A stretch of 64,000 nt of DNA from Candidatus Poribacteria bacterium (GTDB taxonomy: Bacteria; Poribacteria; WGA-4E; WGA-3G): assembly GCA_965208735.1 (NCBI GenBank), contig CBDBPM010000002.1, positions 3,699,687 through 3,763,686 on the forward strand. Reading direction: 5' to 3'. This document shows, piece by piece, positions 6,913 to 27,146 of this stretch. The notes under the pieces were generated by a model, which saw nothing but the letters and a program-made list of their open reading frames with translations, was not told the DNA's origin and searched no databases. The translations under genes and the position numbers were made by a program. The first letter of the stretch is position 1; every line of letters begins with the position of its first letter.

Positions 6913-7487
6913 CTGCCTCCCGTTCTGTTAGATGAGCATTTTCGGAAAACACAGCGTTCTGGTGGCACAAACTAAGAAGTTTGTGCTACAAAAGAGCAGC
7001 AGGCGTCCGTCCTACCTCTGTCAAATAAGGCGCGAGTCGGGTCTATAGGCAGCTCTGCGCGTTTCAGAGTTTTTCAGAGTATTCAGAGTCAACGCTGAAG
7101 TTCGTTTGGTTTTGCAAAGGTTGTAAACATACACTATGACTACTTTCTGTGCGTTTTCCGCATACGGTGCTCAGAAGTTTACTCTGAAAATTTTGTATTT
7201 GGCGAAGGCATGTTCTTTCTGGTGAATGTGAACGCGAAGTGAACGCTAAAAAAGATCTATGCTTTCAGAGTTTATACGTTTGTTAATATTTTGTTGCGAT
7301 GTCAAAGAGATTATGCTGAATCCCCCTCTCTATATTATCGTCCGTTAAGTGTTCATGAAGTGGGTATCGTTCACAGGTTTCGTAATTCAGGTGGAGGGAG
7401 GCGAGGAAGCTGCGTAAGTCCTAAATAAATGACAACTTGCGTTATTTTATTCAGAGGAAAAGCCACGCGAGTTTTTAAGGAAAAGCT

Positions 7488-9512: not shown

Positions 9513-11675
9513 TTGACCGATAACTTATTAAGATCCTTAAATGATGTCCAACGCAAAGCAGTCCAACATGTTGAAGGTCCGGCTCTTTGTCTTCTTTCTG
9601 CTGCTGGTAGCGGCAAAACGCGCGTCATCACACACCGTATCGCCTACTTGATTGCACACTATGATGTTTCCCCTTTCCGTATTCTTGCTGTAACCTTCAC
9701 CAACAAAGCGGCAAATGAAATGAAAGAACGACTTGATGCCCTAATTGGCGAAAATATTAGTAAGGATATTTGGGTGTCAACCTTCCATGCGACTTGTGCT
9801 CGAATCTTGCGACAAGAAATTGATAAATTAGAGGATTATACTCGCTCCTTTACAATTTTTGACACGACTGACCAGGTTGTTGTTGTCAAAGAGGCTCTAA
9901 AGAAACTTGGACGCGAAAACAGACAATATAACCCGCGCGCTATTCTGAGTCATATTAGCCGTGCTAAAAACGATTTTCTCAAACCCGCTGCTTATGCTGA
10001 CATTGCAGGTGACTACTTTGAAGAGATTGTCGCGCAGGTTTACCCCATATATCAAGATTTGCTCTGTCGAAATAACGCCCTTGATTTCGATGACTTGCTT
10101 CTCTTGACTCTAGAATTGTTTGATGATCATCCGGATGTGCTTGAACGCTACCAACACAAGTTTAAGCACATCCTTGTTGATGAATTTCAAGATACCAATC
10201 AGTGTCAATATCGGATTGTGAAACAATTGGCTAAACCGCACGGAAATCTCTGTGTTGTTGGTGATGACGATCAATCTATTTATGCCTTTCGTGGTGCTGA
10301 TATTAGAAATATTCTCAACTTTGAAGAAGATTACAAGGATGCCGAAGTATTCCCTTTAGAGCAAAACTACCGATCTACAAAAAATATCTTAGATGCGGCG
10401 TGGAGTGTAGTGCGCAACAACAAGGCTCGGAAAAAAAAGCGGCTTTGGACTGAAAACGACAAAGGGGACCCTGTCTTTTGCTATGAAGCAGTTAACGAAA
10501 ACGACGAAGCTAACTACGTCGCCACGCAGATTGAAAATTTGCACGTGGAGGGGGTTGACTACGCGGACTTTGCCATTTTTTATCGGACTACCGCACAATC
10601 CCGAGTCTTTGAAGAGGCATTCCGAGCAGCAAACATTCCGTATCAGATTGTCGGCGGTGTCGGTTTCTATGACCGAATGGAAATTAAAGATCTTCTTGCC
10701 TACCTCCGTGTAATATGCAATCCTGACGATTCAATTAGCCTCCGACGTATTATCAACATTCCAGGGCGCGGTATTGGCATGAAAACGATTCAGCGGCTCA
10801 TTGATTTTGCAGCCAGCGAACGGATCTCCTTGTTTGAGGCAGTCAAGCGCGTTAATGAGATCTCACAAATTAGTGGTGGTATTAAGACGAAGGTGAAAAA
10901 GTTTAATAACATCTTTGACAGCTTAAGTGACGATATCCTACCTTCCGATGCCTTATATCATATTTTACAAACTACAAAATATCTTGAAAACCTTGAGGGT
11001 CAGAACACCCTTGAGGCGCAGGGTAGAATTGAAAATATTGAACAACTGATTAATGCAATCACTGAGTACGAAACCTATTCCTCTGCCCCGTCTCTTGCTG
11101 ATTACCTAGAAAATGTTGCCCTTACAATGGATGTAGATGCTATGGAAACTGACGAGACGAATGTAGTACCATTAATGACTCTGCATAGTGCTAAAGGCTT
11201 GGAATTTCCGTTTGTTTTCATCGTCGGTGTGGAAGAAGGGTATCTCCCTCATCAACGCTCCATTGACGCGGCAACAGCAGCGGAATTAGAGGAAGAACGT
11301 CGTCTTTGCTACGTCGGAATAACACGAGCGATGGAGCGTCTCTATCTTGTTCATGCGGATGCGAGACGAATATTTGGTAATTCAGAATATCGTACTCCAT
11401 CACGCTTTATCTCTGAGATTCCCGATCAGCTCATCAAGCATGTTGACCGGTACCATTCTCCATTTCACGAATCGACGGGCTTGTATGAAGAGGTACCTGA
11501 GGATGCAGATGATTACTCGGTTGACCAGATTGTCCATCATCCGCAATTCGGAAGGGGTAAGATAACGAAAGTCACTGGTGCTGGGCAGAATGTTTATATC
11601 ACTGTTCGGTTTAGTCGTGCTGGCATGACAAGGCGATTCGCCGCTTCGCTTGCCCCGCTGACAATGTCTGATTAA
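9513..11675 (+). CDS. uvrD: ATP-dependent DNA helicase, UvrD/PcrA family
   Basis: Superfamily 1 helicase motifs: AAGSGKTRVITHRIAYLI (motif I), TFTNKAANEM, VDEFQDTN, and the C-terminal VTLMTLHSAKGLEFPFVFIVG. TTG start preceded by AAGGGG. Confidence 0.85.
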   Translation: MTDNLLRSLNDVQRKAVQHVEGPALCLLSAAGSGKTRVITHRIAYLIAHYDVSPFRILAVTFTNKAANEMKERLDALIGENISKDIWVSTFHATCARILRQEIDKLEDYTRSFTIFDTTDQVVVVKEALKKLGRENRQYNPRAILSHISRAKNDFLKPAAYADIAGDYFEEIVAQVYPIYQDLLCRNNALDFDDLLLLTLELFDDHPDVLERYQHKFKHILVDEFQDTNQCQYRIVKQLAKPHGNLCVVGDDDQSIYAFRGADIRNILNFEEDYKDAEVFPLEQNYRSTKNILDAAWSVVRNNKARKKKRLWTENDKGDPVFCYEAVNENDEANYVATQIENLHVEGVDYADFAIFYRTTAQSRVFEEAFRAANIPYQIVGGVGFYDRMEIKDLLAYLRVICNPDDSISLRRIINIPGRGIGMKTIQRLIDFAASERISLFEAVKRVNEISQISGGIKTKVKKFNNIFDSLSDDILPSDALYHILQTTKYLENLEGQNTLEAQGRIENIEQLINAITEYETYSSAPSLADYLENVALTMDVDAMETDETNVVPLMTLHSAKGLEFPFVFIVGVEEGYLPHQRSIDAATAAELEEERRLCYVGITRAMERLYLVHADARRIFGNSEYRTPSRFISEIPDQLIKHVDRYHSPFHESTGLYEEVPEDADDYSVDQIVHHPQFGRGKITKVTGAGQNVYITVRFSRAGMTRRFAASLAPLTMSD

Positions 11676-15691: not shown

Positions 15692-17152
15692 ATGCCTGAA
15701 GTCCAAACACCACTATCAAACTATATTAATAGTGAGTGGCAAAAATCAGAGGCGGCTGAACTGATTGACGTTACGAATCCAGCAACTGGAGAAGTCCTCG
15801 TCCAAGTACCGCTTTCACCCGCTGAAGAAGTGCATCAAGCTGCGACTGCTGCTGCCGAAGCACTCCACGAGTGGCGACGTACCCCGCCTGTTCAACGCAT
15901 TCAATATCTCTTTACCTTAAAAAATCTCCTTGAGGAAAACTTAGACGACATCGCGAGAACGATTACGTTGGAGTGTGGTAAGACAGTTGACGAGGCAAAA
16001 GGCGAAATGCGACGTGCTATCGAAAACGTTGAGGTGGCGTGCGGCATCCCGACGCTCATGCAAGGCACGAACTTAGAGGATATCGCCACCGGTATTGATG
16101 AATTCATGATTCGTCAACCCGTCGGCGTATGTGCTGCGATCGCGCCTTTTAACTTCCCAGGGATGATTACCTTCTGGTTTTTACCTTACGCGATTGCTTG
16201 CGGCAACACTTACATCGTCAAACCCTCCGAAAAAGTACCGCTCACGATGCAAAAGATATTCCAACTGCTTGAGCAGACAGGATTGCCTAAAGGCGTGGTC
16301 AACCTTGTTAATGGCGGACGCGAGACTGTAGATGCTATCTTAACACATCCAGATATCCGCGGCGTTAGTTTTGTCGGTGCGACTGAAACCGCAAAAGCCA
16401 TCTATGCGAAAGCCGCTGCAAACGGGAAACGTGTCCAGTGCCAAGGCGGTGCGAAAAATCCACTGATTGTGCTGCCAGACGCTGATCCACAGTTTACTGT
16501 GAATGCTACAGCGGAGAGCGCGTTCGGGTGTGCCGGTCAACGCTGTCTTGCGGCATCCCTTGCACTTACTGTCGGTGGTGCGCGGAATTGGTTTACAAAA
16601 GCCATCGCTGATACCGCTACTGATCGGGTTGTCGGAAACGGATTGGAGGATGGGGTCGAAATGGGGCCCGTTATCACTGCCGAAAGCCAGAAGCGAATTG
16701 AGGGGCTAATTCAGGCAGGTGCTGATGAAGGTGCACAGGTTCTTGTTGATGGTCGGTACCCAAGCATCTCCGGTGGTGAAAACGGTAATTTCATCCGTCC
16801 GACGATTCTTAACGGTCTTAACCCGGAAGGCGAGATCGCCAAGACTGAAATCTTCGGACCCGTTTTAGGGCTTATCCATGTTGAAACGATTGACGATGCA
16901 ATTGAACTCATCAATAGCGGCAGCTACGGCAATATGGCATGTCTCTTTACGAGTAGTGGCGCGTCTGCCCGAAAGTTCCGCTATGAAGCAGAGATCGGAA
17001 ACATCGGCATTAACATCGGTGTTGCTGCGCCAATGGCATTCTTCCCCTTCAGCGGTTGGAAAGATAGTTTCTTCGGCGACCTCCACGGTCAGAGTTGGGA
17101 TGCTGTAGATTTCTTCACACAGAAGAAAGTCGTCGTTGAACGCTGGGCGTAA
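15692..17152 (+). CDS. mmsA: CoA-acylating methylmalonate-semialdehyde dehydrogenase (IolA/MmsA)
   Basis: Near-collinear match to the IolA/MmsA pattern: [100 protein letters not shown]. Confidence 0.85.
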
Positions 17153-17285: not shown

Positions 17286-19271
17286 TCACCACGGCTGCCT
17301 ATATGACGGCGAATTCGCGAAACGTTCCATCCCCAATTCCAAATCAATCTCTGTGTTCGGTGGCAGCTGGACACGGAGATACATGCCATTGACCGGAACT
17401 GTTCGCACTGCCTGACCGATGTTAGCGCGTGCTGAAGTGAAGTTGTGCTCACCCATCGCACCTGCTTGCACAATAACTTCCCTTGATGCTGTTTTATTCA
17501 GATTGACAAGCTGCAGTCCGGTTGTATTCGCTGTCATTTTTGTAACCAATGCACCAACATCTGGTGGAAGTCCCGGTCGCTGCTGTTGTGCGTCAAAGTG
17601 CCGCAGCCGTGTCACGAACATGCCTCCGTTGTAATGCGGTAGCGGAGTGCCACAAGTAAGTTGAACCAACCCTTCACACGTAATTGGGTTACGTCGCTGG
17701 AAATAGGCATCTCCATAACTGGCTGGATCTTCATCGTCGTTATCCATAAAATTCAGACGTGCCTCGACTTGCGAGAGGTTGTGATTGAGGATCGCTTCTG
17801 GGTATTCAGGATATTCACCCCGCATATATGCCAACCATGCACCGTCATGTCCACCGCTATCCTTCGTATGATGCCAAGCGTTGATGTCAAATTTCGATCC
17901 CGTCTTTTTAGCGATGTTCTCTGCGCGTTTTTGATCTGTCTGATCCATTGACAGTGCCCATAGATGCGCAACATCCGAGGCGTGCATCGGCATGAATTCA
18001 AACCAGCCGTCCACCTGCAAAGCCGTGCCACCCTCGTTTGTAATTGGATACTGCAACCACGAACCCGGAACATAGTTAACCTTACCCGGATCGCCATACT
18101 TCTGTGGGACGTAGAGTTGATCGTTCTGCTCAATCCCTCTCTCAATTAAAACGTCAATCTGTGAGCGCGGAAAATCAAGATACGCCAAATCTCGCCAGAG
18201 CAACGCCGCATTCTGTCCAGCGATACTTACTGCTTGTCCGACGCTATGCCATCCATGCGGCCAACTCCACCCATAGTATGAACCATACCACTTACCGTCT
18301 ATATGTTCACCAATCTTACCTGAAAGTCCGACATTGTCTGGAACGATTCCGCCGTTTTCCGCTGTACGTTCTATCCACGCCTCAACATATTCCCGTACCC
18401 ACGCTTTATATTTATCTTCACCGGTTAGGAGATAAGCATTGGCAGCAAGCGTCGTGGCGGCGAGGTTGACGACTGTATCTCCGACACCTTGCCGTTCCCT
18501 GATAAGCTGCCCCATGCGTATGCGCAGTGCCTCATTTTCCCGCACCGCTTCATGGCTCGTGCCGCCCGGTATATCGTAGAACGGCATATTATAGCCGTCC
18601 CAGGGCCAATATGGGTGTCCAGCAAAAGCCCAAAACGCCGGTCCTTTACTACCGTTCATAGCGCACTTGATGATTTTGTGCTGCGGGTCGTAGTTCAGTG
18701 CATCAGGGTCTTCGTTCATAAAAAACCCCGCAAACCGTTTTGCCCGTTCAATGTGCTTAGGGTTTGACGGGTCCGCCATGCAGAGCATATAAAAAAGGTA
18801 GTTTCCCTCGCTTTGATGAAACCAGTCATAACCGGGTTGATACTCCTTCACGACCATCGGGTAACCGTGACCGGTACCATATCGCGCCATATCATTTGTG
18901 ATGACATCGAATTCCGTATCTGCGTCAACCAAGAATTGCGTATCACCACCGAGCATATAAAAGAGGGGCCAGTTATGAAAACTTTCATAAGCATCGTCCA
19001 ATCCGTCAATACTCTGAAAGTCTGGATTCGTTGGCCAGAGCAGTGTGCCATCTGGACGCGTATATTTCTGTAAGACTTCTGGTCCTGCTGCGTTCATTTT
19101 ATCAATGAGTTCGCGTTCAAGGACTGCCCACGTCGGTGGTGTTTGGATGTGCGTCTGCGCTTCAATCGTTGGAAACACGATTTTTACCCCTGACATTTGG
19201 ATTGCAATTGGTTGCAGTATATCATATTTTCGTGTATTCGTGAAACTTATGTTTTTGGGCACCAGAGACAT
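17286..19271 (-). CDS. Large hypothetical protein, possibly a polysaccharide-active (alpha/alpha)6-type enzyme
   Basis: Uninterrupted 661 aa ORF with uniform codon usage. Aromatic- and Trp-rich (WSWPHGWHS, DGWFEFMPMH), as in glycoside hydrolase or lyase folds. No family identified with confidence. Confidence 0.55.
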   Translation of the reverse strand: MSLVPKNISFTNTRKYDILQPIAIQMSGVKIVFPTIEAQTHIQTPPTWAVLERELIDKMNAAGPEVLQKYTRPDGTLLWPTNPDFQSIDGLDDAYESFHNWPLFYMLGGDTQFLVDADTEFDVITNDMARYGTGHGYPMVVKEYQPGYDWFHQSEGNYLFYMLCMADPSNPKHIERAKRFAGFFMNEDPDALNYDPQHKIIKCAMNGSKGPAFWAFAGHPYWPWDGYNMPFYDIPGGTSHEAVRENEALRIRMGQLIRERQGVGDTVVNLAATTLAANAYLLTGEDKYKAWVREYVEAWIERTAENGGIVPDNVGLSGKIGEHIDGKWYGSYYGWSWPHGWHSVGQAVSIAGQNAALLWRDLAYLDFPRSQIDVLIERGIEQNDQLYVPQKYGDPGKVNYVPGSWLQYPITNEGGTALQVDGWFEFMPMHASDVAHLWALSMDQTDQKRAENIAKKTGSKFDINAWHHTKDSGGHDGAWLAYMRGEYPEYPEAILNHNLSQVEARLNFMDNDDEDPASYGDAYFQRRNPITCEGLVQLTCGTPLPHYNGGMFVTRLRHFDAQQQRPGLPPDVGALVTKMTANTTGLQLVNLNKTASREVIVQAGAMGEHNFTSARANIGQAVRTVPVNGMYLRVQLPPNTEIDLELGMERFANSPSYRQPW

Positions 19272-19584
19272 TCAATTGTCCATTTTTCGATCGAATTTTC
19301 ACCCCGGGCCCGGTAGGTTCGGTTTTTGCGGCGTACACGCCCAGATGCGAAGTGCATCGCGGTGTACTCACCCAAATTTTGCCCACACGCGGAGACCAAA
19401 TTTGTCTTTGCTTTACATTTGCGACTTGCATTCCAACCGAACCGGGTTCTAAGAGAAAATCTTGACCACTTCAAATCCTCTTGAATCCCATCTCAACCCC
19501 AGGTCCGGTAGGTTCGGTTTCCTAACCGAACCGGCTCCTTCAAAAAAAGATGTGAAACCCAATAATTTCTTAAAATTGAATGCC
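19265..19584. repeat. Composite intergenic repeat carrying CCGGTAGGTTCGGTTTCCTAACCGAACCGG hairpin units and a conserved 3' module (family shared with 28.7-29.2 kb and 46.8 kb)
   Basis: TCCATTTTTCGATCGAAT...CCGGTAGGTTCGGTTTT at the left end; GCATTCCAACCGAACCGG and CCGGCTCCTTCAAAAAAAGATGTGAAACCCAATAATTTCTTAAAATTGAATGC at the right end are near-identical to 29118-29174. Confidence 0.6.
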
Positions 19585-19710
19585 CTGATCATAGTTAGGT
19601 TTTCCTTGACATCTGGTCTCTTGTTATGATATGTTAATTCAGTAAAGTATATTGATTTGTATTACGTTAACTTGTGGTAAAAAATTACCGCTCGGAGTCT
19701 GGATGTACGT

Positions 19711-20583
19711 GTGCCAACTGATTTGCCATTAGGGATGGACATCTTAGAAATGACAGATAGTGAACTTTATGAAATAGGGATTAAAATCCTTACTGCTAAA
19801 CTCGGTGACTCTGAGGTGCCACGGTTTATTCGGCAGTGCAATCCCGGTAAAGGCGATTACTCTGTTGATCGACATAAATTGCTGGCAAATCAGCCCGGCA
19901 TTGACACCATTGTCAAGCGGATCCAAGATAGACGTGCGGCAAGGGAAGCAGAAGAACGCTCGCGTGCTAAAAGGTTTGCTATGCCTCAAAGTGAAATCCA
20001 AAAAATGACAGATATTGAGATTTCTGAAATCGGAAATCAGGTTCTTATCAATAAACTTGGCACAGCTGGATTGATAGGGTTTATCAGGATTTGCCAGGAA
20101 CTTAACGGTGGTTATCCTCGGGGACTGATTGAAAGTAGTGAAGAGGCTAAAGAATACATTAAACTTTACACTGCAAGCTTGATCTTAAATCCTAAAATAG
20201 TCGAAGACTACATTAAACGCGGCAATGCCTATAGTTACATTGGTGAGCATGACAAAGCCATTGCTGACTATGATCAGGCGATAAAACTCAAACCTAATTA
20301 TGCCAAAGCCTATTACAATCGCGGCAACGCTTATCGTGATAAAGTTGATTTTGACCAAGCTATCGCCGACTATACCAGAGCAATAGAACTCGAGCCCGAT
20401 TATGTTGATGCCTATTACAATCGCGGTAAACTTTACGATGAGATAAATGCGTATAACAAAGCCATTGAAGACTTTAGCACAGTGATAAAACTTGACCCTG
20501 AACATGCCGATGCATATAACTATCGTACTACGGTTTACCGCGATAAAGGCGAGTATGACAAAGCTAGGGAATCAGTCAGATAA
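19711..20583 (+). CDS. TPR-repeat protein with a duplicated N-terminal about 70 aa module
   Basis: The N-terminus has two copies of an (L/I)xxMTDxE(L/I)xEIGxx(I/V)LxxKLG...FIRx module, followed by at least five TPR units (AYYNRGNAYRDKVDFDQAIADYTRAIELEPDY...). GTG or ATG (19735) start. Confidence 0.7.
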   Translation: MPTDLPLGMDILEMTDSELYEIGIKILTAKLGDSEVPRFIRQCNPGKGDYSVDRHKLLANQPGIDTIVKRIQDRRAAREAEERSRAKRFAMPQSEIQKMTDIEISEIGNQVLINKLGTAGLIGFIRICQELNGGYPRGLIESSEEAKEYIKLYTASLILNPKIVEDYIKRGNAYSYIGEHDKAIADYDQAIKLKPNYAKAYYNRGNAYRDKVDFDQAIADYTRAIELEPDYVDAYYNRGKLYDEINAYNKAIEDFSTVIKLDPEHADAYNYRTTVYRDKGEYDKARESVR

Positions 20584-20610
20584 AGAAATTCTTCTTGTGA
20601 AGGAGGGCGA

Positions 20611-22239
20611 ATGAACGATAAATCCGATTCTCAAAATGAACTTAATAGGGTTTTGGAAAAGATTCAAGAAATAGTAAAAAAGTCCGCTGATGGAGATTAC
20701 ATCTATCGGGGTGAACCAGAACTGCATCAAGAACATCCTTATCATGGAAAGGTTTCCTCAAGCCTGTATCGCTCGTCATTGACTGATTCTGTAATGGAAG
20801 AGGGTATAGAAGAGTACCGTAAAATTATTGAATCTCAGATTGGGAACAGGGAACGGTGGACTTTGGAGTTGGCGAAAGAATATTTATATGAAACTGGCAG
20901 CGAAACAATCAGCGATTTTGAAATCTTAGCGCGACTCCAACACCATGGTGGTAAGACCAATCTTATAGATTTCACAACTGACTACCTGATTGCTCTCTTT
21001 TTTGCCTGTGATAGATCCTATCATAAAGATGGCAGGGTTATCTTACAAAAAAGAGAATCGGAAGATTACCAAGCGGAAACACCTTCAGAAGCAATTAAAC
21101 GGGTGGAATCCCAAAAAAGTGTACTGCTCCGGTCGCCAAAAGGTTTTATCAATCCAGATGTTGTGGTGATTATTCCAAAGGAACTCAAATTTTCCGTGCT
21201 AAACTATCTTGAAAAGCACCACGACATATCTACTAAAAAGATTTACAAAGATATCCACGGATTTGTAAAATGGTTAGGCGGATACATTGATCCTATGGCT
21301 GAATTTGGTAAAGGGGTAATTTGTCAAAATAGGGCGAGTTTAGGAAATAACATGCAGGAGAAATTGAAATGGTATGAAAAAGCTTATGAGCATTTTACCG
21401 AAGCATTGAGACTAAAATCAGATTTCACCGAAGTTTATATTCATCGCGGAGCTGTTTTTCGCGATGTTGCCCAGTTTGATCCTGCTCTTAAAGACTTTAA
21501 TACTGCAATAGAAATAGTCCCTGAGGCTGCCGATGCGTATAACGAGCGCGGAAGATGTTATGCTAAAATGGGTGATACTGAAAAAGCACTAAAGGATTTC
21601 AACATTGCTATAGATTTGAATTCAGAGAAGGCAGATTTCTATAACAATCGCGGTATAACTTACAAAGATATGGGTGAAGTTGACTTGGCAATGAAAGATT
21701 ATAATAAAGCAATAGAACTAGATCCAGAATTTCCCGAGGCCTATAACAATCGCGGCATAGTTTATGACGAGAGAGGTGAACTTGACTGTGCTATCAAGGA
21801 CTATAGTAAGGCAATAGAACTCAAATCTTATTATGCGAATGCCTGTAATAATCGCGGTCTGGCCTACCGAGAAAGGGGTGATGTTGATCTTGCCATTGAA
21901 GACTTTAGAAATGCAATTATAGGAGAGTATGATTTTGCTGAAGCTTACTACAATCTCTGTGAAGCCTACCTCATCAAAGGTGATTTTGAGAGTGCTTATA
22001 CTGACTTGGCTACACTAGCAATGCTAATGTCGTCTCCCTATGCGTATTTTGCTTGCGGTATAATCGGGTTGTGCCAACAGCAATGGGAAAAGGCTAGATC
22101 AGACTTTACTGTTGCTACGGATAACGGATTGGATATCGTCGCTTTATTTTATAAAGATTATGGAGGCATTGAAGACTTTGAGCAGAAGAATGATCTTCAG
22201 TTACCGGAAGACATCGCGACGATGTTGAGGCAGCAATAA
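20611..22239 (+). CDS. FRG-domain protein fused to a C-terminal TPR array
   Basis: N-terminal YIYRGEPELHQEHPYHGKVSSSLYRS ... LARLQHHGGKTNLIDFTTDYLIALFFAC fits the FRG-domain (PF08867) pattern: FRG ... L.PS.fR ... QHyG.PTrLlDwT...A.yFA. The C-terminal half is at least seven TPR units plus a tail shared with the next gene. Confidence 0.7.
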   Translation: MNDKSDSQNELNRVLEKIQEIVKKSADGDYIYRGEPELHQEHPYHGKVSSSLYRSSLTDSVMEEGIEEYRKIIESQIGNRERWTLELAKEYLYETGSETISDFEILARLQHHGGKTNLIDFTTDYLIALFFACDRSYHKDGRVILQKRESEDYQAETPSEAIKRVESQKSVLLRSPKGFINPDVVVIIPKELKFSVLNYLEKHHDISTKKIYKDIHGFVKWLGGYIDPMAEFGKGVICQNRASLGNNMQEKLKWYEKAYEHFTEALRLKSDFTEVYIHRGAVFRDVAQFDPALKDFNTAIEIVPEAADAYNERGRCYAKMGDTEKALKDFNIAIDLNSEKADFYNNRGITYKDMGEVDLAMKDYNKAIELDPEFPEAYNNRGIVYDERGELDCAIKDYSKAIELKSYYANACNNRGLAYRERGDVDLAIEDFRNAIIGEYDFAEAYYNLCEAYLIKGDFESAYTDLATLAMLMSSPYAYFACGIIGLCQQQWEKARSDFTVATDNGLDIVALFYKDYGGIEDFEQKNDLQLPEDIATMLRQQ

Positions 22240-22271
22240 CTCTAAAACCCATCGAATAGGGGTATAGTGAA

Positions 22272-23105
22272 GTGGTAACGCGTAAACCTAATGATACCGA
22301 GTCATATTACAATCGTGGCATCGCTTACTACGAAAAACGTGAGTATGATAAAGCCATCGCAGACTTTAGCGAGGTCATAAAACGCGCACCCAATCATGTT
22401 GATGCTTATTACAATCGCGGCAATGCTTATTGGGATAAAGTTGATTTTGACGAAGCCATTGCAGACTATACCAAGGCGATAGAACTCAAGCCCGATTATG
22501 CCGAAGCCTATTACAAGCGCGGTAGAATTTATGCTGAGGACGATGAGTATCACAAAGCCATTGACGACTTTGGTATGACGATAAAGTTTGACCCTGAACA
22601 TTCCAACGCGCATGGTTATCGTGCTGACCTTTACCGTGATATAGGCGAATACGACGAAGCCGTTGCGGGGTATAACATGGAAATGGAACTCCGCCCCGGT
22701 GCCCCCGAGGTCTATTATAACCGTGGAAACACTTACGCCGCAAAAGGTGAATATAACAACGCCATTGAAGACTTTAGCAAAGCGATAGAACTAAATCCAG
22801 AGTTTGCAGAGGTTTATGTCAAACGCACTTTAACTTATATCCGAATAGGCAAATTTGATCGCGCCATTCAAGATTATGACAAGGTGCTGGATCTCAAACC
22901 AAAATCTATTGCATTCTACGCGGCTCGTGGTATAATATCTCTACAAATAGAAGAATGGGAAAGTGCTAAATTAGACCTGATTTTTGCCAGAAATTTAAGA
23001 GTGAATATCATCAATATATTCCATACAATGTACGAAAACGTTGCTGACTTTGAAGAAAAAAATAATGTGCAGTTGCCGAAAGACATCACGGCAATGCTGA
23101 CGTAA
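22272..23105 (+). CDS. TPR-repeat protein, paralog of 19711-20583 and of the C-terminal half of 20611-22239
   Basis: TPR units with 80-90% nucleotide identity to stretches of the first TPR gene. The C-terminal tail (NVADFEEKNNVQLPKDITAMLT) is paralogous to the tail of the FRG-TPR protein. GTG start with a weak RBS. Confidence 0.65.
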   Translation: MVTRKPNDTESYYNRGIAYYEKREYDKAIADFSEVIKRAPNHVDAYYNRGNAYWDKVDFDEAIADYTKAIELKPDYAEAYYKRGRIYAEDDEYHKAIDDFGMTIKFDPEHSNAHGYRADLYRDIGEYDEAVAGYNMEMELRPGAPEVYYNRGNTYAAKGEYNNAIEDFSKAIELNPEFAEVYVKRTLTYIRIGKFDRAIQDYDKVLDLKPKSIAFYAARGIISLQIEEWESAKLDLIFARNLRVNIINIFHTMYENVADFEEKNNVQLPKDITAMLT

Positions 23106-23160
23106 CAATAAGCATAATTCCTGATTCATCAATTTTTGGAAGACTATAACAGGGGAGCAT

Positions 23161-24363
23161 ATGCTGGCACAAACTATTTCCGATATCATAGAATGCAAGC
23201 AAACAATTGAAAATCATAGGTTTGACGAAACCGCGACTAAACAGTATATTGTTCTCCCTATTCTCAGATCCTTAGATTGGCAAGATGACAATTTATATAC
23301 GTTAGAGGTGTTTCCAGAAAAAAGAGTTGGCGATGGAAAAGTTGACTATGCTTTGCAACATGATCAAACCTCTTTGGTATTTGTTGAGTGTAAACGTTGG
23401 GGCACAAGCATTGAGAAATATCAGGCACAAATTTGCCAGTACGCTTTTCAAGCAGGAATAGAAATAGCCGTTATCACCAACGGAAAAATATGGGACTTCT
23501 ACCTACCTAATCTAACAAGTACACCTGACAGGAGGATTATACCATGGGAAGATAGGATTTTCTGTTCCATTGATCTTGAAATACAGCAGGAAGCAGCATC
23601 CGACTTCCAAAAATATCTCTCCAAGTCTAATGTTGAACAGGGGAAAGCAAAGGTGGAAGCGCGAGAAGCGTTTCAACCCCGATTGTCCGATACTCCTTTA
23701 CCACGGCAGAATTATGGATTACCGATTCTGAAAGCCTTAGAAAGTCTTGGAGGTTCTGGAGCGACCCACCGAGTATTAGAATTGGTCTATCAATTCATGG
23801 ATTCGGCTAATGAGCTGCGAGAAATAGATAAGTCTCTTCGATCAGACGGTCAGTTTTATTGGGATAATCGGACCCAGGACATGCGACGAGAATTAATCAG
23901 TAAAGGTCTAATGAAAGATGATTCTCCGTGGGGTATTTGGGAAATCTCTAATGCTGGGCTTGAATACCTCTGTGATATGGATGTCCAAAAATCACCACGA
24001 TCCCCAACCCTGAATACTTCTTCGCACGAACATGGGGCTGAACCTTCTGATACTCCGCTTCCACGAACGAGCTATGCTTTACCTATTTTAAAAGCCTTAA
24101 TCCAGCTTGGTGGCTCTGCAATCACCAGTGAGGCACTCAAAACAGTTCGCCAATTAATGGAAAACGAATTGAAACCAATAGACCTATCACAACGTCCAGC
24201 CGGACATTTGTATTGGGAAAACCGTGTTCACGATATGCGACGAGAATTGATAAATAGGGGTCTAATGGTAGCCAATTCTCCGCGCGGAATTTGGGAAATT
24301 TCTGATGCCGGGCGTGAGTATCTTATTAATCTTAATAGTAAGGAAAATTTAGACAGTGGATAA
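23161..24363 (+). CDS. Restriction-endonuclease-like protein: N-terminal HsdR_N-type PD-(D/E)xK nuclease domain plus two tandem Mrr_N-like winged-helix domains
   Basis: GDGKVDYALQHDQTSLVFVECKRW...IAVITNGKIWDFY fits the HSDR_N pattern (rpDYvl...vvEaK...iiTNG..w.fy). The C-terminal half is two repeats of about 110 aa (DTPLPR..Y.LPILKAL..LGGS.....L..V.Q.M.....E...R..G..YW.NR..DMRRELI..GLM...SP.GIWEIS.AG.EYL) that match the Mrr N-terminal wHTH pattern. RBS GGGGAG. Confidence 0.7.
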   Translation: MLAQTISDIIECKQTIENHRFDETATKQYIVLPILRSLDWQDDNLYTLEVFPEKRVGDGKVDYALQHDQTSLVFVECKRWGTSIEKYQAQICQYAFQAGIEIAVITNGKIWDFYLPNLTSTPDRRIIPWEDRIFCSIDLEIQQEAASDFQKYLSKSNVEQGKAKVEAREAFQPRLSDTPLPRQNYGLPILKALESLGGSGATHRVLELVYQFMDSANELREIDKSLRSDGQFYWDNRTQDMRRELISKGLMKDDSPWGIWEISNAGLEYLCDMDVQKSPRSPTLNTSSHEHGAEPSDTPLPRTSYALPILKALIQLGGSAITSEALKTVRQLMENELKPIDLSQRPAGHLYWENRVHDMRRELINRGLMVANSPRGIWEISDAGREYLINLNSKENLDSG

Positions 24364-25180
24364 TACAACTAAACCTGTTATAGCAGCTCCAACAGCGCGT
24401 GCGGAGTCCGATCTTGACGGTGCGAGAAACATCCTTGCGGATGCCCTTTACGAGATGGGGTATGATGGCACGTTAGTAGACACTCTGATAGAAAGAAATG
24501 TCATTGATTTCAGTACTGTTGACTACACAAGCCATATCAAGTACCAACTTAGAGAACGTTATGGAGAATCTATTTTATGGGATGATAGTCTTGAAGATGC
24601 TGTTGCCGTTGAGGTTTTAACAGTTTCTTTAACAGGTGAACTGGGAAAAAACTGGAGTGCCTCTAAGAACGACACTTTTCAAGAACGTATCCGAGATGTG
24701 ATCGGAAAATTAATTGAAAAGTTAGGGCTAAAGGTAGTTTTGCGCTATGATTTAGTAAAGAATGGCACCTTATCCGAAGAATTGGAAAGTGTTAAACAAC
24801 ATTTGACAGTTGATTATGGAGAATTTAACTCTGATCTCCCGTATGTTGATCTTGTAATTTATACCGCCGAAAATTCGCGTGTTATTGCTGTAATCTCGTG
24901 CATAATTAATTTGAAACCCCGAATTTTTGACACAGTTTATTGGAGACTCAAATTTCGGGAAGACGAAGATAAAGCCTCTATCAAATTCTATCTCGTCACA
25001 ACTGATATAGACGAAACTCTGAAGATTGCAGACTTACCGGAAAAAAGACGAGCCATTTTAGAGGCAGAACTTGATGGCATCTATGTACTAACAGCATCGG
25101 AATTTCAGCAAAGCGATAAGGTTAAACTGTTTGAACATTTTATTGAGGATTTTAAACAAGCCATAGAAGAGAGTCAATAA
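24356..25180 (+). CDS. Hypothetical protein, translationally coupled to the nuclease gene
   Basis: Overlaps the upstream stop by 8 nt. 274 aa, acidic, no recognisable family. The segment PYVDLVIYTAENSRVIAVISCIINLK could be a degenerate D...(D/E)xK motif, but this is speculative. Confidence 0.55.
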   Translation: MDNTTKPVIAAPTARAESDLDGARNILADALYEMGYDGTLVDTLIERNVIDFSTVDYTSHIKYQLRERYGESILWDDSLEDAVAVEVLTVSLTGELGKNWSASKNDTFQERIRDVIGKLIEKLGLKVVLRYDLVKNGTLSEELESVKQHLTVDYGEFNSDLPYVDLVIYTAENSRVIAVISCIINLKPRIFDTVYWRLKFREDEDKASIKFYLVTTDIDETLKIADLPEKRRAILEAELDGIYVLTASEFQQSDKVKLFEHFIEDFKQAIEESQ

Positions 25181-25184
25181 CCTA

Positions 25185-26078
25185 ATGAAAATAGCAAATG
25201 CCCCGTGTTCGTGGGGTGTGCTTGAGTTTGAGTTAGACGGTGAAGCACCCAACTATACACAAGTATTAGACGAAATGCACGCCATCGGTTACATCGGCAC
25301 CGAACTCGGAGATTGGGGGTTTATGCCGACGAATGCCGGACAGCTTCGCGACGAACTTGCGAAGCGGCAATTAACACTGTTGGGCGCATTCGTAGCGGTC
25401 GCGCTCGCCGATACGAAGACACACGCAGTTGGTGAAGCAGCAGCACTGCGTCACGCCCGTTTGTTAGCAGATGTCGCTGGCGACACGCCGTTCATCGTGC
25501 TTTCAGATGATAACGCCACCACAGAACTACGTACCCGTTATGCCGGTCGTGTCCGGCCTGAACACGGGTTGACACCTGCAGAGTGGGATACCTTTGTACA
25601 GGGCGTACACCGTATCGCGCAATCGGTGAAAGACGAAACAGGACTTCGCACCGTTTTTCATCCGCATTGTGCAGGGTATATAGAGACAGCAGCAGAAGTG
25701 GATACATTGATGGAACGCACCGATCCGAGCCTCATTGGGTTGTGTTTTGATACCGGGCATTACCGATTCGGTGGCGGTGATCCACTTGAAGCGTATACGC
25801 GTCATGCAGACAGGATATGGCACGTCCATTTCAAGGACTGTCATCCTGACATCGCTGCCCGTTCTCGAAAAAATGAATGGGATTACTTTGCATCTGTCGG
25901 AAACGGTGTTTTTTGCGAATTAGGCAACGGAGAGGTCGATTTTCCGTCATTCCTTGCAGAATTGCGAAACCGGGATTACGACGGTTGGATCGTTGTGGAG
26001 CAGGATGTCCTACCGGGGATGGGGAGTCCTTACGAGAGCGCGGAACGGAATCTGCGGTACCTAAATTCGATTCTATAG
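25185..26078 (+). CDS. iolE: Inosose dehydratase-like sugar phosphate isomerase/epimerase (xylose-isomerase-like TIM barrel, IolE-like)
   Basis: AEVDTLMERTDPSLIGLCFDTGHYRF...RIWHVHFKDC...DGWIVVEQD parallels B. subtilis IolE ([26 protein letters not shown]...RIKHVHFKDV...GWIVVEAEQD). Confidence 0.7.
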   Translation: MKIANAPCSWGVLEFELDGEAPNYTQVLDEMHAIGYIGTELGDWGFMPTNAGQLRDELAKRQLTLLGAFVAVALADTKTHAVGEAAALRHARLLADVAGDTPFIVLSDDNATTELRTRYAGRVRPEHGLTPAEWDTFVQGVHRIAQSVKDETGLRTVFHPHCAGYIETAAEVDTLMERTDPSLIGLCFDTGHYRFGGGDPLEAYTRHADRIWHVHFKDCHPDIAARSRKNEWDYFASVGNGVFCELGNGEVDFPSFLAELRNRDYDGWIVVEQDVLPGMGSPYESAERNLRYLNSIL

Positions 26079-26126
26079 CAGTGGATATTGAAATTAATAC
26101 ACAGCGTGGGAGTTAGGAGACCTTTG

Positions 26127-27146
26127 ATGAACAACCCTTCAAAAATTGGTGTTGGTGTTATCGGGGCGGGACGTATCGGTAGACTTCATATTGAGCATCT
26201 TGCACAGCGTATACCAGAAGCCGAACTGCTCTCGATTTGCAGCTTGAACCCCTCTGGTGCCGAATCCCTTGCTGAACAGTTTAAGGTCCCGAAAGTGATG
26301 ACCGATTACAAGGCTCTCTTGGCAGATCCGCAGGTTGATGCTGTGCTTGTCGCCTCTTCAACGGATACGCATGTCGAAATCAGCCAAGCCGCCGCGAAAG
26401 CAGGGAAACACATCTTTTGCGAGAAACCGATCGCGTTTGACTTGGATCAGATTGACGAAACCTTGGCGATTGTAGAAGAGGCAGGCGTGAAGTTTCAGAT
26501 CGGTTTTAACCGTAGGTTTGATGCAAGTTTTAAGCGTGTGCGTGAAGCGGTTGCCTCTGGCGAGATTGGCGAGCCGCACATCATACGTATCACGAGCCGC
26601 GACCCGGCACCACCGCCGATTGAATACGTCAAGGTCTCCGGCGGGATTTTTCTTGACATGACGATCCACGATTTCGATATGGCGCGGTATCTGATCGCGG
26701 ACGAGGTTGTTGAAGTCTACGCAGCGGGCGGCGTGCGCGTTGATCCGAAAATTGGCGAGGCAGGCGATATTGACACAACGGTTATCACCCTACGATTCCA
26801 GAATGGGGTTATCGGAATGATAGATAACAGTAGAGAGGCCGTCTACGGCTACGACCAGCGGGTTGAGGTATTCGGTTCAAAGGGGATGGTTACGGCGGCG
26901 AATCCACCGAGGGATACTGTTACCTTCAGCGGTAGTGAGGGCAGTCGTGCTGCATCGCCCCCCTACTTTTTTGTGGAACGTTATCAGCCCGCATTTCTCG
27001 CGGAATTGCAAGCGTTCTTTACATGCATCCAAGAAGACACACCACCACCCGTCACAGGGGCAGATGGTCGCGCACCTGTCGTAATGGGTTTTGCAGCGTT
27101 GAAATCGCTGCGCGAAAATCGTCCAGTCCTTTTGTCGGACATTTAG
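26127..27146 (+). CDS. iolG: myo-Inositol 2-dehydrogenase-like Gfo/Idh/MocA oxidoreductase
   Basis: N-terminal Rossmann GVIGAGRIGRLH, EKPIAFDL, GFNRRFD and RITSRDPAPPP segments fit the IolG pattern. Start set at the ATG after AGGAG. Confidence 0.7.
   Translation: MNNPSKIGVGVIGAGRIGRLHIEHLAQRIPEAELLSICSLNPSGAESLAEQFKVPKVMTDYKALLADPQVDAVLVASSTDTHVEISQAAAKAGKHIFCEKPIAFDLDQIDETLAIVEEAGVKFQIGFNRRFDASFKRVREAVASGEIGEPHIIRITSRDPAPPPIEYVKVSGGIFLDMTIHDFDMARYLIADEVVEVYAAGGVRVDPKIGEAGDIDTTVITLRFQNGVIGMIDNSREAVYGYDQRVEVFGSKGMVTAANPPRDTVTFSGSEGSRAASPPYFFVERYQPAFLAELQAFFTCIQEDTPPPVTGADGRAPVVMGFAALKSLRENRPVLLSDI

Follow-up and report, generated by a model that had tools for sequence, protein, structure and literature searches.

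Defense-island hotspots with conserved flanks have been described for the pan-genomes of E. coli, Pseudomonas, and Vibrio. These hotspots have core-gene flanks, interchangeable defense cargo, low GC, and IS elements, and the Poribacteria locus analyzed here resembled them in each of these respects. In contrast to the described hotspots, it had no integrase and no attachment site, one island gene (the long form of g5, defined below) was itself quasi-fixed at its boundary, and the host lineage consisted of uncultivated sponge symbionts.

Single genes of the locus also had well-described counterparts. BsaWI, which is grouped with the CCGG-family Type IIP endonucleases NgoMIV, Kpn2I, and SgrAI, has the catalytic and recognition residues D145, K165, and R169-D170-R171, and a D145A substitution leaves no hydrolysis (PMC4652773). 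DpnI is an m6A-dependent Type IIM enzyme, and fusions of a PD-(D/E)XK nuclease to a winged helix (wH) were found by experiment to be m6A-dependent Type IV enzymes (PMC11037411). Mrr (Mrr_N plus Mrr_cat) and GmrSD (DUF262 plus DUF1524) are Type IV systems as well. The FRG domain belongs to the ART superfamily and is a predicted NADase and antiviral effector (PMC9503650; Aravind lab); our literature search found no functional study of the PADLOC candidate PDC-S15.

The window was a 64-kb stretch of Poribacteria DNA, and it contained the following features.

15692..17152, + strand: mmsA/iolA, methylmalonate-semialdehyde dehydrogenase, outer left flank (TIGR01722)
17286..19271, - strand: DUF8034 protein, inner left flank (ortholog and conserved position)
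19290..19548, no strand: palindromic REP-like repeats within the intergenic leader (440 nt)
19606..19635, + strand: sigma-70-like candidate promoter, best match 5' of g1 (TTGACA-18-TATGTT with TG)
19711-20583, + strand: g1, first ORF of the five-gene block
20611-22239, + strand: g2, second ORF, gap to g1 of 27 nt
22272-23105, + strand: g3, third ORF, gap to g2 of 32 nt
23161-24363, + strand: g4, fourth ORF, gap to g3 of 55 nt
23161..23655, + strand: N-terminal PD-(D/E)xK nuclease domain of g4, HsdR_N type (motif and fold matches)
23686..24336, + strand: tandem Mrr_N-type winged helices of g4, aa 176-275 and 296-392 (Mrr_N, E=6e-17)
24356-25180, + strand: g5, fifth ORF, gap to g4 of -8 nt (overlap)
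24356..24640, + strand: g5N, helical lineage-specific N-terminal extension of g5 (cluster search, AF2)
24641..25180, + strand: BsaWI-family catalytic-fold domain of g5, degenerate active site (PF18643, alignment, fold)
25185..27146, + strand: iolE-like gene (AP_endonuc_2) and iolG, right flank (profile matches)

As the first-pass annotation had proposed, the five genes were tightly packed on the same strand and the block was AT-rich, with a GC content of 0.407 versus 0.462 for the window. The block value was the minimum among 235 sliding 5.47-kb windows of the 64-kb stretch, and GC3 was 0.32 to 0.42 in the block versus 0.43 to 0.54 in the flanks. The flanking inositol genes were also borne out: mmsA (TIGR01722, 540 bits; cut-off, 448.5) and iolG (TIGR04380, 470; cut-off, 355) scored above their profile cut-offs, and the iolE-like gene, which started 4 nt past the g5 stop codon, scored 208, below its cut-off of 290. 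The DUF8034 protein was assigned via its ortholog in locus L001, which carried PF26099. The mosaic repeat element that had been placed at 19265-19584 held up in part. The leader contained two families of direct repeats (36 nt at 19290 and 19485; 25 nt at 19435 and 19524) and a hairpin at 19505-19534, but the repeat core CCGGTAGGTTCGGTT occurred at five sites in the window (0.07 expected), including sites at 28.7 and 46.8 kb. CCGGTAGGTTCGGTT is a dispersed REP-like palindrome and thus not specific to the block. The candidate promoter was a consensus match alone, and the regional total of such matches was at chance level.

Our survey covered 78 loci, which were anchored on g5 relatives. The site (mmsA and DUF8034 on one side, iolE-like and iolG on the other) was common to about 50 Poribacteria species genomes, in which the flanks (DUF8034, iolE-like, iolG, ABC, and FtsX) were constant and the interior was variable. 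The mmsA gene was 84 to 95% identical across related loci, and most Poribacteria loci had a DUF8034 protein of 73 to 87% identity at this position. Elsewhere, the cargo included a complete Type II CBASS (SMODS, 1e-43; ThiF-E2; JAB; Cap4-SAVED), GmrSD (2e-27), an N6_N4 methyltransferase (MTase) with an HNH gene, a 437-aa MTase with RE_BsaWI (canonical restriction-modification, or R-M), a C5 MTase, PIN pairs, DUF4258, and IS elements. Thus, the defense-like context suggested for the block was supported by known defense genes in the same slot of other Poribacteria. The suggestion of a recent insertion into an iol locus was not, as the block was one state of an old hotspot present in about 50 species-level genomes.

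With confidence somewhat above even, we propose that Poribacteria have a hypervariable defense-island hotspot at this site and that the block is one of its allelic states, in which separate modules (g1, g2, g3, and a g4-g5 restriction-type cassette) would be juxtaposed and would not form one machine. The same joint explanation would make g4 a probably modification-dependent nuclease and g5 a non-catalytic partner, and we infer an anti-phage phenotype for the block genes. The observations that bear on this proposal concern domain content, loss of the g5 active site, selection, synteny, cassette swapping, and adjacency statistics.

The g1 protein consisted of a domain that we designated g1N (aa 1-160, with an internal duplication) and three to four TPRs. 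No Pfam match was found in aa 1-165. Nearly all of the 183 homologs were labelled Poribacteria or had no source name, and the domain is Poribacteria-specific. The L092 ortholog of g1 was 93% identical at the nucleotide level from position 19735 onward, and the ATG at 19735 is probably the true start of g1. A PIN gene was located in front of the L092 ortholog. Of 24 PIN genes, 23 had a g1N-type gene as their downstream neighbor, mostly with an overlap. No PIN remnant was detected in the 64-kb window. Hence, g1 is the orphan half of a PIN-g1N pair and would be the partner half of a toxin-antitoxin-like unit whose PIN gene is missing here. The pairs were similar to VapBC in that a PIN-domain gene (E=2e-5) overlapped or abutted a small partner gene. 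Unlike in VapBC, the partner was downstream of PIN, had no Pfam family, and was often fused to TPRs, and the g1 gene of the window had no PIN gene.

The description of g1, g2, and g3 as three recently diverged TPR paralogs was accurate for g1 and g3, which were 61% (aa) and 77% (nt) identical over their TPR regions, but g2 was only 34 to 38% identical to either. The FRG domain reported in g2 was confirmed by a PF08867 match (E=2.8e-13, aa 30-139), with about six TPRs behind it; the C terminus was formed by a conserved tail (DFEQKN..QLP.DI..ML). The g2 dN/dS values were 0.08 to 0.26. When g2 was compared with PADLOC models, 13 PDC-S15 models were matched (best E=1.5e-16) in the FRG part only, so that g2 corresponded to the PADLOC candidate PDC-S15 at the domain level. 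The (F/Y)RG and QHxGxxTxLxDxT motifs were present. Unlike PDC-S15, g2 matched only the FRG half of the models and had an added TPR array and conserved tail, and in relatives, an (inactivated) nuclease domain was added at the N terminus or a DUF4258 gene was located upstream. We suggest that g2 would be a single-protein sensor-effector, with the TPR array and tail serving as a sensor or scaffold and the FRG domain (ART fold, predicted to consume NAD+) as the effector; NADase activity would be expected from this domain assignment. The g3 protein was composed entirely of TPRs (TPR_1, E=7.9e-53) and ended in a tail that was 43% identical to that of g2. It would be a TPR-tail protein that is always located just 5' of the current restriction cassette of the island.

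The modules were found to be separate across related loci, which spoke against the idea that the five genes travel together. Contig L092 was 96.6% identical to the window at the nucleotide level over g5 and the iolE-like start, 93% identical over g1, and 85% identical over g3. However, GmrSD was located exactly in the g4 position of L092, with a breakpoint 13 nt 5' of the g5 start, the PIN gene preceded g1, and the FRG-TPR gene was another allele in another position. In locus L003, g4 was reduced to its final ~180 nt. Adjacencies were counted as raw loci, with kinship ignored, and the co-occurrence frequencies are biased because the loci were all anchored on g5 or g4; an FRG-anchored scan returned one locus. 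In these counts, MTase267 was followed by HNH in 21/27 cases, MTase437 by a restriction endonuclease in 37/40, and g4 by a long g5 in 19/22. The neighbors of FRG-TPR varied.

The first-pass claim of one five-gene defense unit was contradicted by L092 and by the neighbor counts, and we regard it as unlikely that the genes form one undescribed system, with TPR sensors, FRG and g4 nuclease effectors, and a g5 accessory protein. The shared strand, the small gaps, the single plausible upstream promoter (the consensus match above), and the C-terminal tail common to g2 and g3 would fit such a system. So would fusions of FRG-TPR-tail to the g4 nuclease domain (g4N) in proteins of 527 to 765 aa (P0209 and others, including a 765-aa protein in L038), 209-aa g4N genes located directly 5' of FRG-TPR in L005 and L012, and an FRG-TPR/TPR/g4 order that was seen again in L035 and, at another chromosomal site, in L090. 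The fusions and the recurring order provided some evidence that FRG-TPR and the nuclease domain of g4 are linked, and the fusions hint at cross-talk. However, the Glu of ExK was lost (IVVK) in the fused g4N domains, so the fusions tie FRG to no active nuclease. In addition, FRG-TPR was followed by an MTase gene in eight loci and by a TPR gene in eight, g3-like genes were directly upstream of GmrSD in 11 loci, MTase in five, and g4 in only three, and the genes upstream of long g5 were g4 (18), GmrSD (13), or HNH (7). The regular partner of g1 was absent, and all five genes in this order were seen nowhere outside the window among the loci surveyed.

The composition proposed for g4, an HsdR_N-type nuclease with two Mrr_N domains, was upheld by two Mrr_N stretches and by the agreement of fold and motif. 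The HSDR_N_2 match (22.2 bits) was below the Pfam cut-off of 25. The motif (E49, D62, E76-C-K78) was intact, and D62, E76, C77, and K78 were invariant in 33 g4 homologs and in all Mrr_N-bearing orthologs. In Foldseek searches, the g4 model matched the nuclease domains of BpuSI (1e-4), DpnI (1.2e-3; 4kyw, over 251 columns), and HsdR (5.7e-3), and it also matched winged-helix proteins. The winged helices were 60% identical to each other (an internal duplicate found via tblastn), AF2 pLDDT was 84 to 96 in both, and the g4 dN/dS was 0.09 to 0.16.

Like DpnI and the PD-(D/E)XK-wH fusions (PMC3424567, PMC11037411), g4 had an N-terminal nuclease followed by winged helices and no partner MTase. Unlike DpnI, to which it had no sequence similarity, g4 had an HsdR_N-type nuclease and duplicated Mrr_N-type winged helices, possibly of another wH family than that of DpnI, and it showed translational coupling to a dead homolog of BsaWI. 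It shared with Mrr the combination of Mrr_N (PF14338) and a PD-(D/E)xK nuclease, but the order was inverted, the winged helix was present in two copies, and the nuclease was HSDR_N-like instead of Mrr_cat (no PF04471 match). GmrSD was found in the exact g4 slot in 11 to 13 loci, including the near-identical L092, with a TPR-tail gene upstream and a long g5 downstream as for g4, although g4 belongs to an unrelated family and has no GmrSD domains. Because of the DpnI-like order, the slot shared with GmrSD, and the lack of a nearby MTase, we propose by analogy that g4, which carries the only intact nuclease site of the cassette, is probably an MTase-independent and modification-dependent DNA nuclease.

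If g4, with or without g5, were instead an ordinary restriction enzyme protected by an MTase encoded elsewhere in the 6-Mb genome, the 64-kb view would have missed it. One-wH forms of g4 had MTase/HNH in front in 12/14 cases, and never a TPR gene, and a ~372-aa two-wH sister subfamily (L088-L090) adjoined MTase or MTase-HNH; therefore, two winged helices alone do not imply MTase independence. However, R-M genes are in tight linkage as a rule, and no MTase was located within 7 to 10 kb on either side of g4 in any of the five loci of the ~400-aa two-wH subfamily of the window (the window, L010, L017, L035, and L087). A TPR gene preceded two-wH g4 in 6/8 cases and GmrSD in 11/13. Given also the exchange of g4 for MTase-independent GmrSD in L092, we consider a distant MTase improbable.

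The g5 protein, which had been said to have no recognizable family, matched RE_BsaWI (PF18643, E=2.7e-24). NCBI labelled its homologs "BsaWI family type II restriction enzyme," and BsaWI itself (4zsf) was the best PDB match of the g5 model (Foldseek E=2.4e-5, prob 1.0), with which it shared a two-domain fold (helical N and alpha/beta C). We refer to BsaWI-family ORFs with g5N as long forms and to those without it as short forms. g5 was 42 to 53% identical over aa ~93-274 to short forms from Poribacteria and many phyla, and it differed from BsaWI by an extra lineage-specific N-terminal extension of ~45 residues, by the lack of a cognate MTase, and by its fixed, non-mobile position beside the iolE-like gene. 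The g5N region was found in 17 clusters among 1.84 billion representatives and its conservation exceeded that of the C-domain (for example, 73% versus 47% in L028). The AF2 pLDDT was 80 to 92 at aa 20-150.

In a 97-sequence alignment with BsaWI, Tyr163 and Ile183 of g5 were located at the positions of the catalytic D145 and K165, respectively, and K-P-R replaced R169-D170-R171, the R-(D/E)-R motif for CCGG recognition. All 55 short forms had the signature D-D-[ST]-K-[RA]-E-R (49 R-E-R, 6 A-E-R), and 27 of them directly followed an ORF of about 437 to 467 aa; the three such ORFs tested were all N6_N4 MTases. In contrast, none of 41 long forms had the full signature (Y-D-S-I-K-P-R in the window). 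Both Asp and Lys were kept in 5/41, so the long-form family is not uniformly dead. The g5 dN/dS was 0.18 to 0.39, versus 0.05 to 0.15 for neighboring genes. Judged from its sequence, g5 is a catalytically dead restriction-enzyme relative kept by purifying selection. It would descend from a BsaWI-type Type II enzyme that lost the catalytic Asp/Lys and the CCGG-reading motif and gained an N-terminal extension. Since purifying selection maintains it, g5 presumably works with the upstream nuclease as a partner that lacks catalytic activity, and it would act in dimerization, DNA clamping, or regulation. A physical g4-g5 partnership would follow, but the same g5 allele was found with g4 or with GmrSD, which argues against a g4-specific one. 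Long g5 genes were directly before the iolE-like gene in 28/40 cases, with a gap of 4 to 8 nt, and g5 might be tied to that gene instead of g4.

The eroded active site and recognition motif of g5 could also mark g4-g5 as the decaying remnant of an MTase-[HNH]-g4-g5 R-M module that lost its MTase, and the block as island debris. The 64-kb window contained no MTase, HNH, or GmrSD homologs, relatives had the fuller cassettes MTase-HNH-g4-g5 and MTase-g4-g5, g4 leftovers were present in L003, and the g5 AF2 model was ill-defined exactly at aa 187-207 and 220-238. However, the g4 and g5 ORFs were intact in dozens of species, with a conserved 8-nt overlap, and the dN/dS values given above included pairs inside the MTase-less subfamily (L010, L017). 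Moreover, the MTase-less ~400-aa g4 was a populated subfamily (>20 clusters) with a confidently folded, duplicated winged helix. Decay therefore seemed a poor explanation to us.

Least probable was a role outside defense, with the TPR proteins as "eukaryote-like" sponge-interaction proteins and g4/g5 as co-opted DNA-binding regulators of the adjacent inositol-catabolism operon: repeat proteins are numerous in Poribacteria (a WD40 protein was encoded in another low-GC patch, 7488-9311), g5 was close to the iolE-like gene with no terminator detected between them and formed a single 572-aa ORF with it in L017, and a dead nuclease fold is expected after co-option to DNA binding, but in relatives the same slot was occupied by CBASS, GmrSD, R-M systems, and PIN pairs, direct reading of the g1-g3 starts revealed no hydrophobic signal-peptide-like segment, g2 had an FRG effector domain, the g4 nuclease motif was strictly conserved, and the g4-g5 pair, which was present in at least three chromosomal contexts, was also found away from iol genes (L083-86 and L089).

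Our preferred reading, a hotspot state made up of separate modules, would mean that Poribacteria, which are sponge symbionts, keep a shuffled anti-phage island at a fixed spot among their inositol genes.

The five genes of the block were recovered as + strand open reading frames (ORFs) at the positions claimed by the first-pass annotation, with gaps of 27, 32, 55, and -8 nt:

19711-20583, + strand, g1: Pfam-less N-terminal domain (g1N) followed by TPRs
20611-22239, + strand, g2: FRG-TPR gene
22272-23105, + strand, g3: TPR-tail gene
23161-24363, + strand, g4: PD-(D/E)xK nuclease with two Mrr_N winged helices (wH)
24356-25180, + strand, g5: BsaWI homolog

The source names of homologs assign the window to Candidatus Poribacteria, whose members are sponge symbionts. 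The block was AT-rich, as had been claimed; its GC content was 0.407 versus 0.462 for the window, the lowest value among 235 sliding windows of 5.5 kb, and GC3 was 0.32-0.42 in the block versus 0.43-0.54 in the flanks. The left flank consisted of mmsA (above the NCBIfam cut-off) and then a DUF8034 gene, and the right flank of an iolE-like gene (below the NCBIfam cut-off) and then iolG (above the cut-off). In the case of the repeat element reported upstream of the block, repeats were present, but the REP-like palindrome was scattered across the window and was not block specific. Specifically, the palindromic motif CCGGTAGGTTCGGTT, which pairs with a partner, AACCGAACCGG, into hairpins, was located in intergenic DNA at window positions 19310, 19505, 28731, 46768, and 46839 (five sites versus 0.07 expected by chance). 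No Rfam matches were found in 17-27.5 kb of the window, and promoter and terminator scans returned counts at the chance level, with a single decent promoter-like site. Elsewhere in the window, another low-GC patch (GC ~0.41) contained the gene for a 607-aa WD40-repeat protein (7488-9311), which adjoins uvrA (3820-6708) and uvrD (9513-11675). A 269-aa ORF (47735-48544) and two large ORFs of 594 and 572 aa with overlapping ends (60375-62159 and 62135-63853) had no Pfam match; these three ORFs, all in low-GC stretches (0.40-0.43), could likewise belong to the accessory or island gene set.

The block had been suggested as a possible insertion into an iol locus. When it was compared with loci collected from other genomes (L001 to L092), the site proved to be not a recent, single insertion but a conserved hotspot in about 50 Poribacteria species-representative genomes. 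These genomes shared the same arrangement: a DUF8034 gene on the minus strand, a variable interior, a g5-type gene, the iolE-like gene 4-8 nt from it, iolG, and ABC/FtsX. Some interiors contained a 267-aa methyltransferase (MTase) plus HNH, with or without g4, some contained GmrSD, and others contained a 437-aa MTase plus a canonical BsaWI-type restriction endonuclease (REase). Interiors also included PIN and DUF4258 genes, several IS transposases, a C5 MTase accompanied by an IS1595 element, and a complete Type II CBASS, which comprised a SMODS cyclase, a ThiF/E2 fusion, a Prok-JAB protein, and a Cap4 nuclease-SAVED effector. The CBASS operon was located on the minus strand of L013 (3695-8319), and the same ORF sizes and order were observed in L014 and L030. 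The conserved flanks and the variable, defence-rich interior define a defence-island hotspot, and the presence of CBASS, GmrSD, MTase plus REase, and PIN in the same slot of relatives agreed with the defence-like context that had been proposed. A second chromosomal hotspot was observed in L089 and L090 between TMP-TENI and Phos_pyr_kin/PfkB genes; its modules (g1N, FRG-TPR, TPR, a ~372-aa g4, g5, MTase, and HNH) were permuted.

The idea that the five genes form a single novel system did not survive this comparison, as the modules paired independently. Among non-redundant loci, the direct downstream neighbour of the 267-aa MTase was HNH in 21 of 27 cases, and that of the 437-aa MTase was a REase in 37 of 40. 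An FRG-anchored scan of metagenome contigs, intended as an unbiased check of co-occurrence, returned one locus, L092, which shared 96.6% nucleotide identity with the window across g5 and the first part of the iolE-like gene, 93% over g1, and 85% over g3. In L092, GmrSD occupied the place of g4, and the breakpoint was 13 nt ahead of the start of g5; g1 had a PIN gene upstream of it, and the FRG-TPR gene was a 65%-identical allele located upstream of PIN. In another relative (L003), g4 was reduced to its final ~180 nt. The five genes are separate modules of defence-related cargo, not one system.

The gene at the hotspot edge, g5, had been assigned no family. We found that it matched RE_BsaWI (PF18643, E=2.7e-24) and that BsaWI was the best PDB match of its structural model (4zsf; Foldseek E=2.4e-5, prob 1.0). 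Single-sequence PDB searches with g4 and g5 yielded chance-level matches alone, and NCBIfam profiles matched neither protein. A g5 profile reached BsaWI in the PDB at just E=0.021; therefore, the active-site mapping rests on an alignment of 97 g5-type ORFs from 78 loci against BsaWI residues 81-173, together with the fold search. The crystal structure of BsaWI shows that Asp145 and Lys165 are catalytic and that R169-D170-R171 reads CCGG, and a D145A substitution abolishes hydrolysis (PMC4652773). The signature D-D-[ST]-K-[RA]-E-R was present in all 55 short-form g5 proteins (~226 aa, lacking the N-terminal extension g5N), which were not confined to Poribacteria but spanned ten or more further phyla, archaea included. 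Twenty-seven of these 55 directly followed an ORF of ~437-467 aa; three of these preceding ORFs were tested, and all were N6_N4 MTases.

In the alignment, the window g5 had Tyr163 at the BsaWI D145 position and Ile183 at the K165 position, and thus both catalytic residues were gone. Its signature read Tyr, Asp, Ser, Ile, Lys-Pro-Arg, with K-P-R instead of R-(D/E)-R as the recognition motif. Among long-form proteins, which carry g5N, neither the full signature nor RER was found (0/41 each), and 5 of 41 had both Asp and Lys. The ~95-aa g5N region itself was found in merely 17 clusters in 1.84 billion representatives. Relative to the window copy, dN/dS was 0.18-0.39 for g5 versus 0.05-0.15 for the iolE-like gene and iolG; because the ORF was intact in dozens of species and dN/dS was in this range, g5 is not a pseudogene. 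Judged by its residues, g5 is a predicted catalytically dead, selection-maintained BsaWI derivative at the hotspot edge. In long g5, the N-domain is well kept and the C-domain is drifting or recombining; in L028, for example, identity was 73% in the N-domain versus 47% in the C-domain. NCBI names the long-form homologs (P0005, P0051, P0072, and others) "BsaWI family type II restriction enzyme", which is probably a misleading over-annotation for proteins predicted to lack the catalytic and recognition residues.

Canonical BsaWI-type restriction-modification systems have an MTase neighbour, whereas g5 had no cognate MTase in the 64-kb window: seven MTase queries of the N6_N4 and C5 types found no homolog in all 64 kb. 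HNH and GmrSD homologs were also absent from the 64-kb window. In g4 cassettes, g5 retained both D and K in 0 of 10 cases with HNH versus 2 of 2 that had only an MTase. We set aside the idea that the arrival of HNH displaced g5 catalysis as speculation, since L033 (MTase-HNH-g5) keeps D and K and the numbers are small.

Several other arrangements of BsaWI-family genes were observed. In L017 (10001-11719), the g5 stop codon was absent, and g5 and the iolE-like gene were one in-frame 572-aa ORF, reflecting either a genuine fusion or a misassembly of OZ244804.1. In many Poribacteria (L039-L056; e.g., L040 8543-11249), the hotspot ended with the 437-aa MTase and two tandem short BsaWI-family genes with both signatures intact; the second occupied the place of long g5 beside the iolE-like gene, and some second copies had AER, not RER. 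In L057-L080 (e.g., L060 8509-11222), a three-gene cassette that combined a BsaWI-family REase of ~228 aa with two N6_N4 MTases, the first ~450 aa and the second ~228 aa long, was carried by Atribacterota, WOR-3, Deltaproteobacteria, Omnitrophica, Bacteroidetes, Patescibacteria, and archaea, and the near-identical REases among phyla suggest wide horizontal spread.

The gene directly upstream of g5 encodes the nuclease g4. The proposed Mrr_N assignment held (PF14338, E=6e-17, two copies), and in the N-terminal PD-(D/E)xK domain, which gave a sub-threshold HSDR_N_2 match, D62 and E76-C-K78 were invariant in 33 homologs. An AF2 model (pLDDT 77) showed an alpha/beta nuclease core and two wH, and Foldseek matched it to the nuclease domains of BpuSI, HsdR, and DpnI and to many wH proteins; searches of PDB chains with the g4 sequence and profile found no relation. 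The order of an intact N-terminal nuclease followed by wH is like that of DpnI and the PD-(D/E)XK-wH Type IV enzymes (Foldseek DpnI E=1.2e-3). Any kinship of the g4 wH with the DpnI-like 6mA-sensing family is tentative, as the Foldseek match was to the whole protein and had a high rmsd. Two other known architectures fit less well. Mrr has a C-terminal Mrr_cat after its wH, whereas g4 had no Mrr_cat match and its nuclease is N-terminal and HSDR_N-like. Type I HsdR has an SF2 helicase/translocase and works with HsdM/HsdS, whereas g4 is 400 aa, has no helicase domain, and has no HsdM/S genes nearby.

No MTase was located within +/-7-10 kb of g4 in the window's ~400-aa two-wH subfamily (5/5 loci). 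This was not a general rule for proteins with two Mrr_N copies, as the sister ~372-aa two-wH subfamily (L088-L090) adjoins an MTase or MTase-HNH. In L088, no g5 accompanied the ~372-aa g4-like gene (7001-8119); its surroundings were plasmid-like (ParA/CbiA, RHH antitoxin, and HTH_36), and an FRG-TPR gene and a divergent N6_N4 MTase were nearby. Strong purifying selection acts on g4 (dN/dS 0.09-0.16), and PD-(D/E)XK-wH fusions have been shown experimentally to be m6A dependent (PMC11037411). The DpnI-like order, this precedent, the selection, and the exchange with the Type IV enzyme GmrSD together suggest that g4 acts as a nuclease that is independent of an MTase and probably modification dependent. 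Against a plasmid collection, g5 had no match and g4 had weak N-domain matches only (26-34%, to "type I restriction endonuclease / HsdR N-terminal domain" genes); thus, plasmid carriage was unsupported.

Among non-redundant loci, long g5 was directly downstream of g4 in 19 of 22 cases, and this adjacency occurred in at least three chromosomal contexts: the island, a compact MTase-g4-g5 cassette (L052, L083-86) with housekeeping genes around it, and a second site, where the order was g4-g5-MTase-HNH (L089). The upstream partners of g4 differed by type. One-wH g4 genes had MTase/HNH directly upstream in 12 of 14 cases and a TPR gene in none, whereas a TPR gene was upstream of six of eight two-wH g4 genes (Fisher p ~4e-4 for TPR upstream, uncorrected for phylogeny) and of 11 of 13 GmrSD genes. 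In 38 of 40 loci, long g5 had a nuclease-type gene upstream (g4 in 18, GmrSD in 13, and HNH in 7). The conserved g5 N-domain and this upstream gene fit a non-catalytic partner or a boundary gene, but any such partnership is not g4 specific, since one g5 allele pairs with g4 or GmrSD.

In the TPR part of the block, the N-terminal ~160 aa of g1 formed a domain that is internally duplicated and belongs to no Pfam family; three to four TPRs follow it. The 183 homologs of g1N were nearly all from Poribacteria and were usually encoded downstream of an overlapping PIN gene; a g1N-type gene was directly downstream of 23 of 24 PIN genes. No PIN gene or remnant was found in the window, including upstream of g1. 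The three TPR genes had been called recently diverged paralogs; g1 and g3 were indeed close (61% aa identity), but g2 was not (34-38%). The C-terminal tail of g2 is common to g3, which is otherwise all TPR.

The FRG domain claimed for g2 was confirmed (PF08867, E=2.8e-13), along with its TPRs. FRG was reportedly first assigned to the ART superfamily in an earlier paper. According to the Aravind group, this ART-superfamily domain is predicted to be an antiviral effector and may be an NADase (PMC9503650). The FRG part of g2 (aa 3-170) matched 13 PDC-S15 models of PADLOC (best E=1.5e-16), with partial coverage of about model positions 19-197 of 276-324, and we found no functional study of PDC-S15 in the literature. 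In relatives, the g4 nuclease domain was fused to FRG-TPR-tail in proteins of 527-765 aa (53% identity over aa 1-161) and was also encoded on its own, by a 209-aa gene immediately preceding FRG-TPR; the Glu of the ExK motif was gone in the fused copies (IVVK) and kept in the separate ones. The order FRG-TPR, TPR, g4 appeared again in L035 and, at a different chromosomal site, in L090. Judging from these arrangements, some cross-talk of FRG-TPR with a g4-type nuclease-fold domain is plausible. The neighbours of FRG-TPR varied, with DUF4258, g1N, or a stand-alone g4 nuclease domain upstream and a TPR-tail gene (8 cases) or an MTase (8 cases) downstream. A 95-aa DUF4258-like gene (toxin-like, sub-threshold E=1e-4), absent from the window, overlapped the FRG-TPR start in L001 (5746-6033), L004, L008, L011, L023, L028, and L035, and the two genes could be a two-gene unit.

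The analysis shows which domains are present, which residues are lost, how selection acts, and how the genes are arranged; mechanistic steps beyond these are predictions. One such prediction is that long g5 is a non-catalytic hub for swapped upstream nucleases and that the g4-type nuclease domain is a nucleic-acid sensor for FRG-TPR NADase effectors, a joint reading that we consider improbable. As a hub, the BsaWI-derived long g5, fixed at the island boundary, would dock, license, or regulate the nuclease cassette directly upstream; the sensor role is suggested by the domain fusions. If the hub reading were true, the island would hold a restriction platform of modular design whose catalytic subunits can be exchanged, and if both were true, restriction and abortive infection would be linked within one island.

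The most interesting points are the predicted dead BsaWI derivative at the edge of a phylum-wide hotspot, the two-wH nuclease that swaps with GmrSD, and the fusion link to FRG-TPR. These extend known kinds of systems and do not overturn current concepts. If our assignments are right, g4 would represent a new MTase-independent restriction architecture (PD-ExK, two Mrr_N winged helices, and a dead REase partner) that is naturally interchangeable with GmrSD, and the fusions and recurrent neighbourhoods would be genomic evidence that TPR sensors and a nuclease-fold domain are linked with the uncharacterised effector FRG (PDC-S15). The g5 proteins would be a natural series, with intermediates in sister species, of a Type II restriction enzyme that is kept despite its loss of both catalysis and sequence reading, and would bear on the recycling of defence genes into non-catalytic parts. 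In Poribacteria, an uncultivated sponge-symbiont phylum, the mapped defence hotspot is useful for mining more systems.
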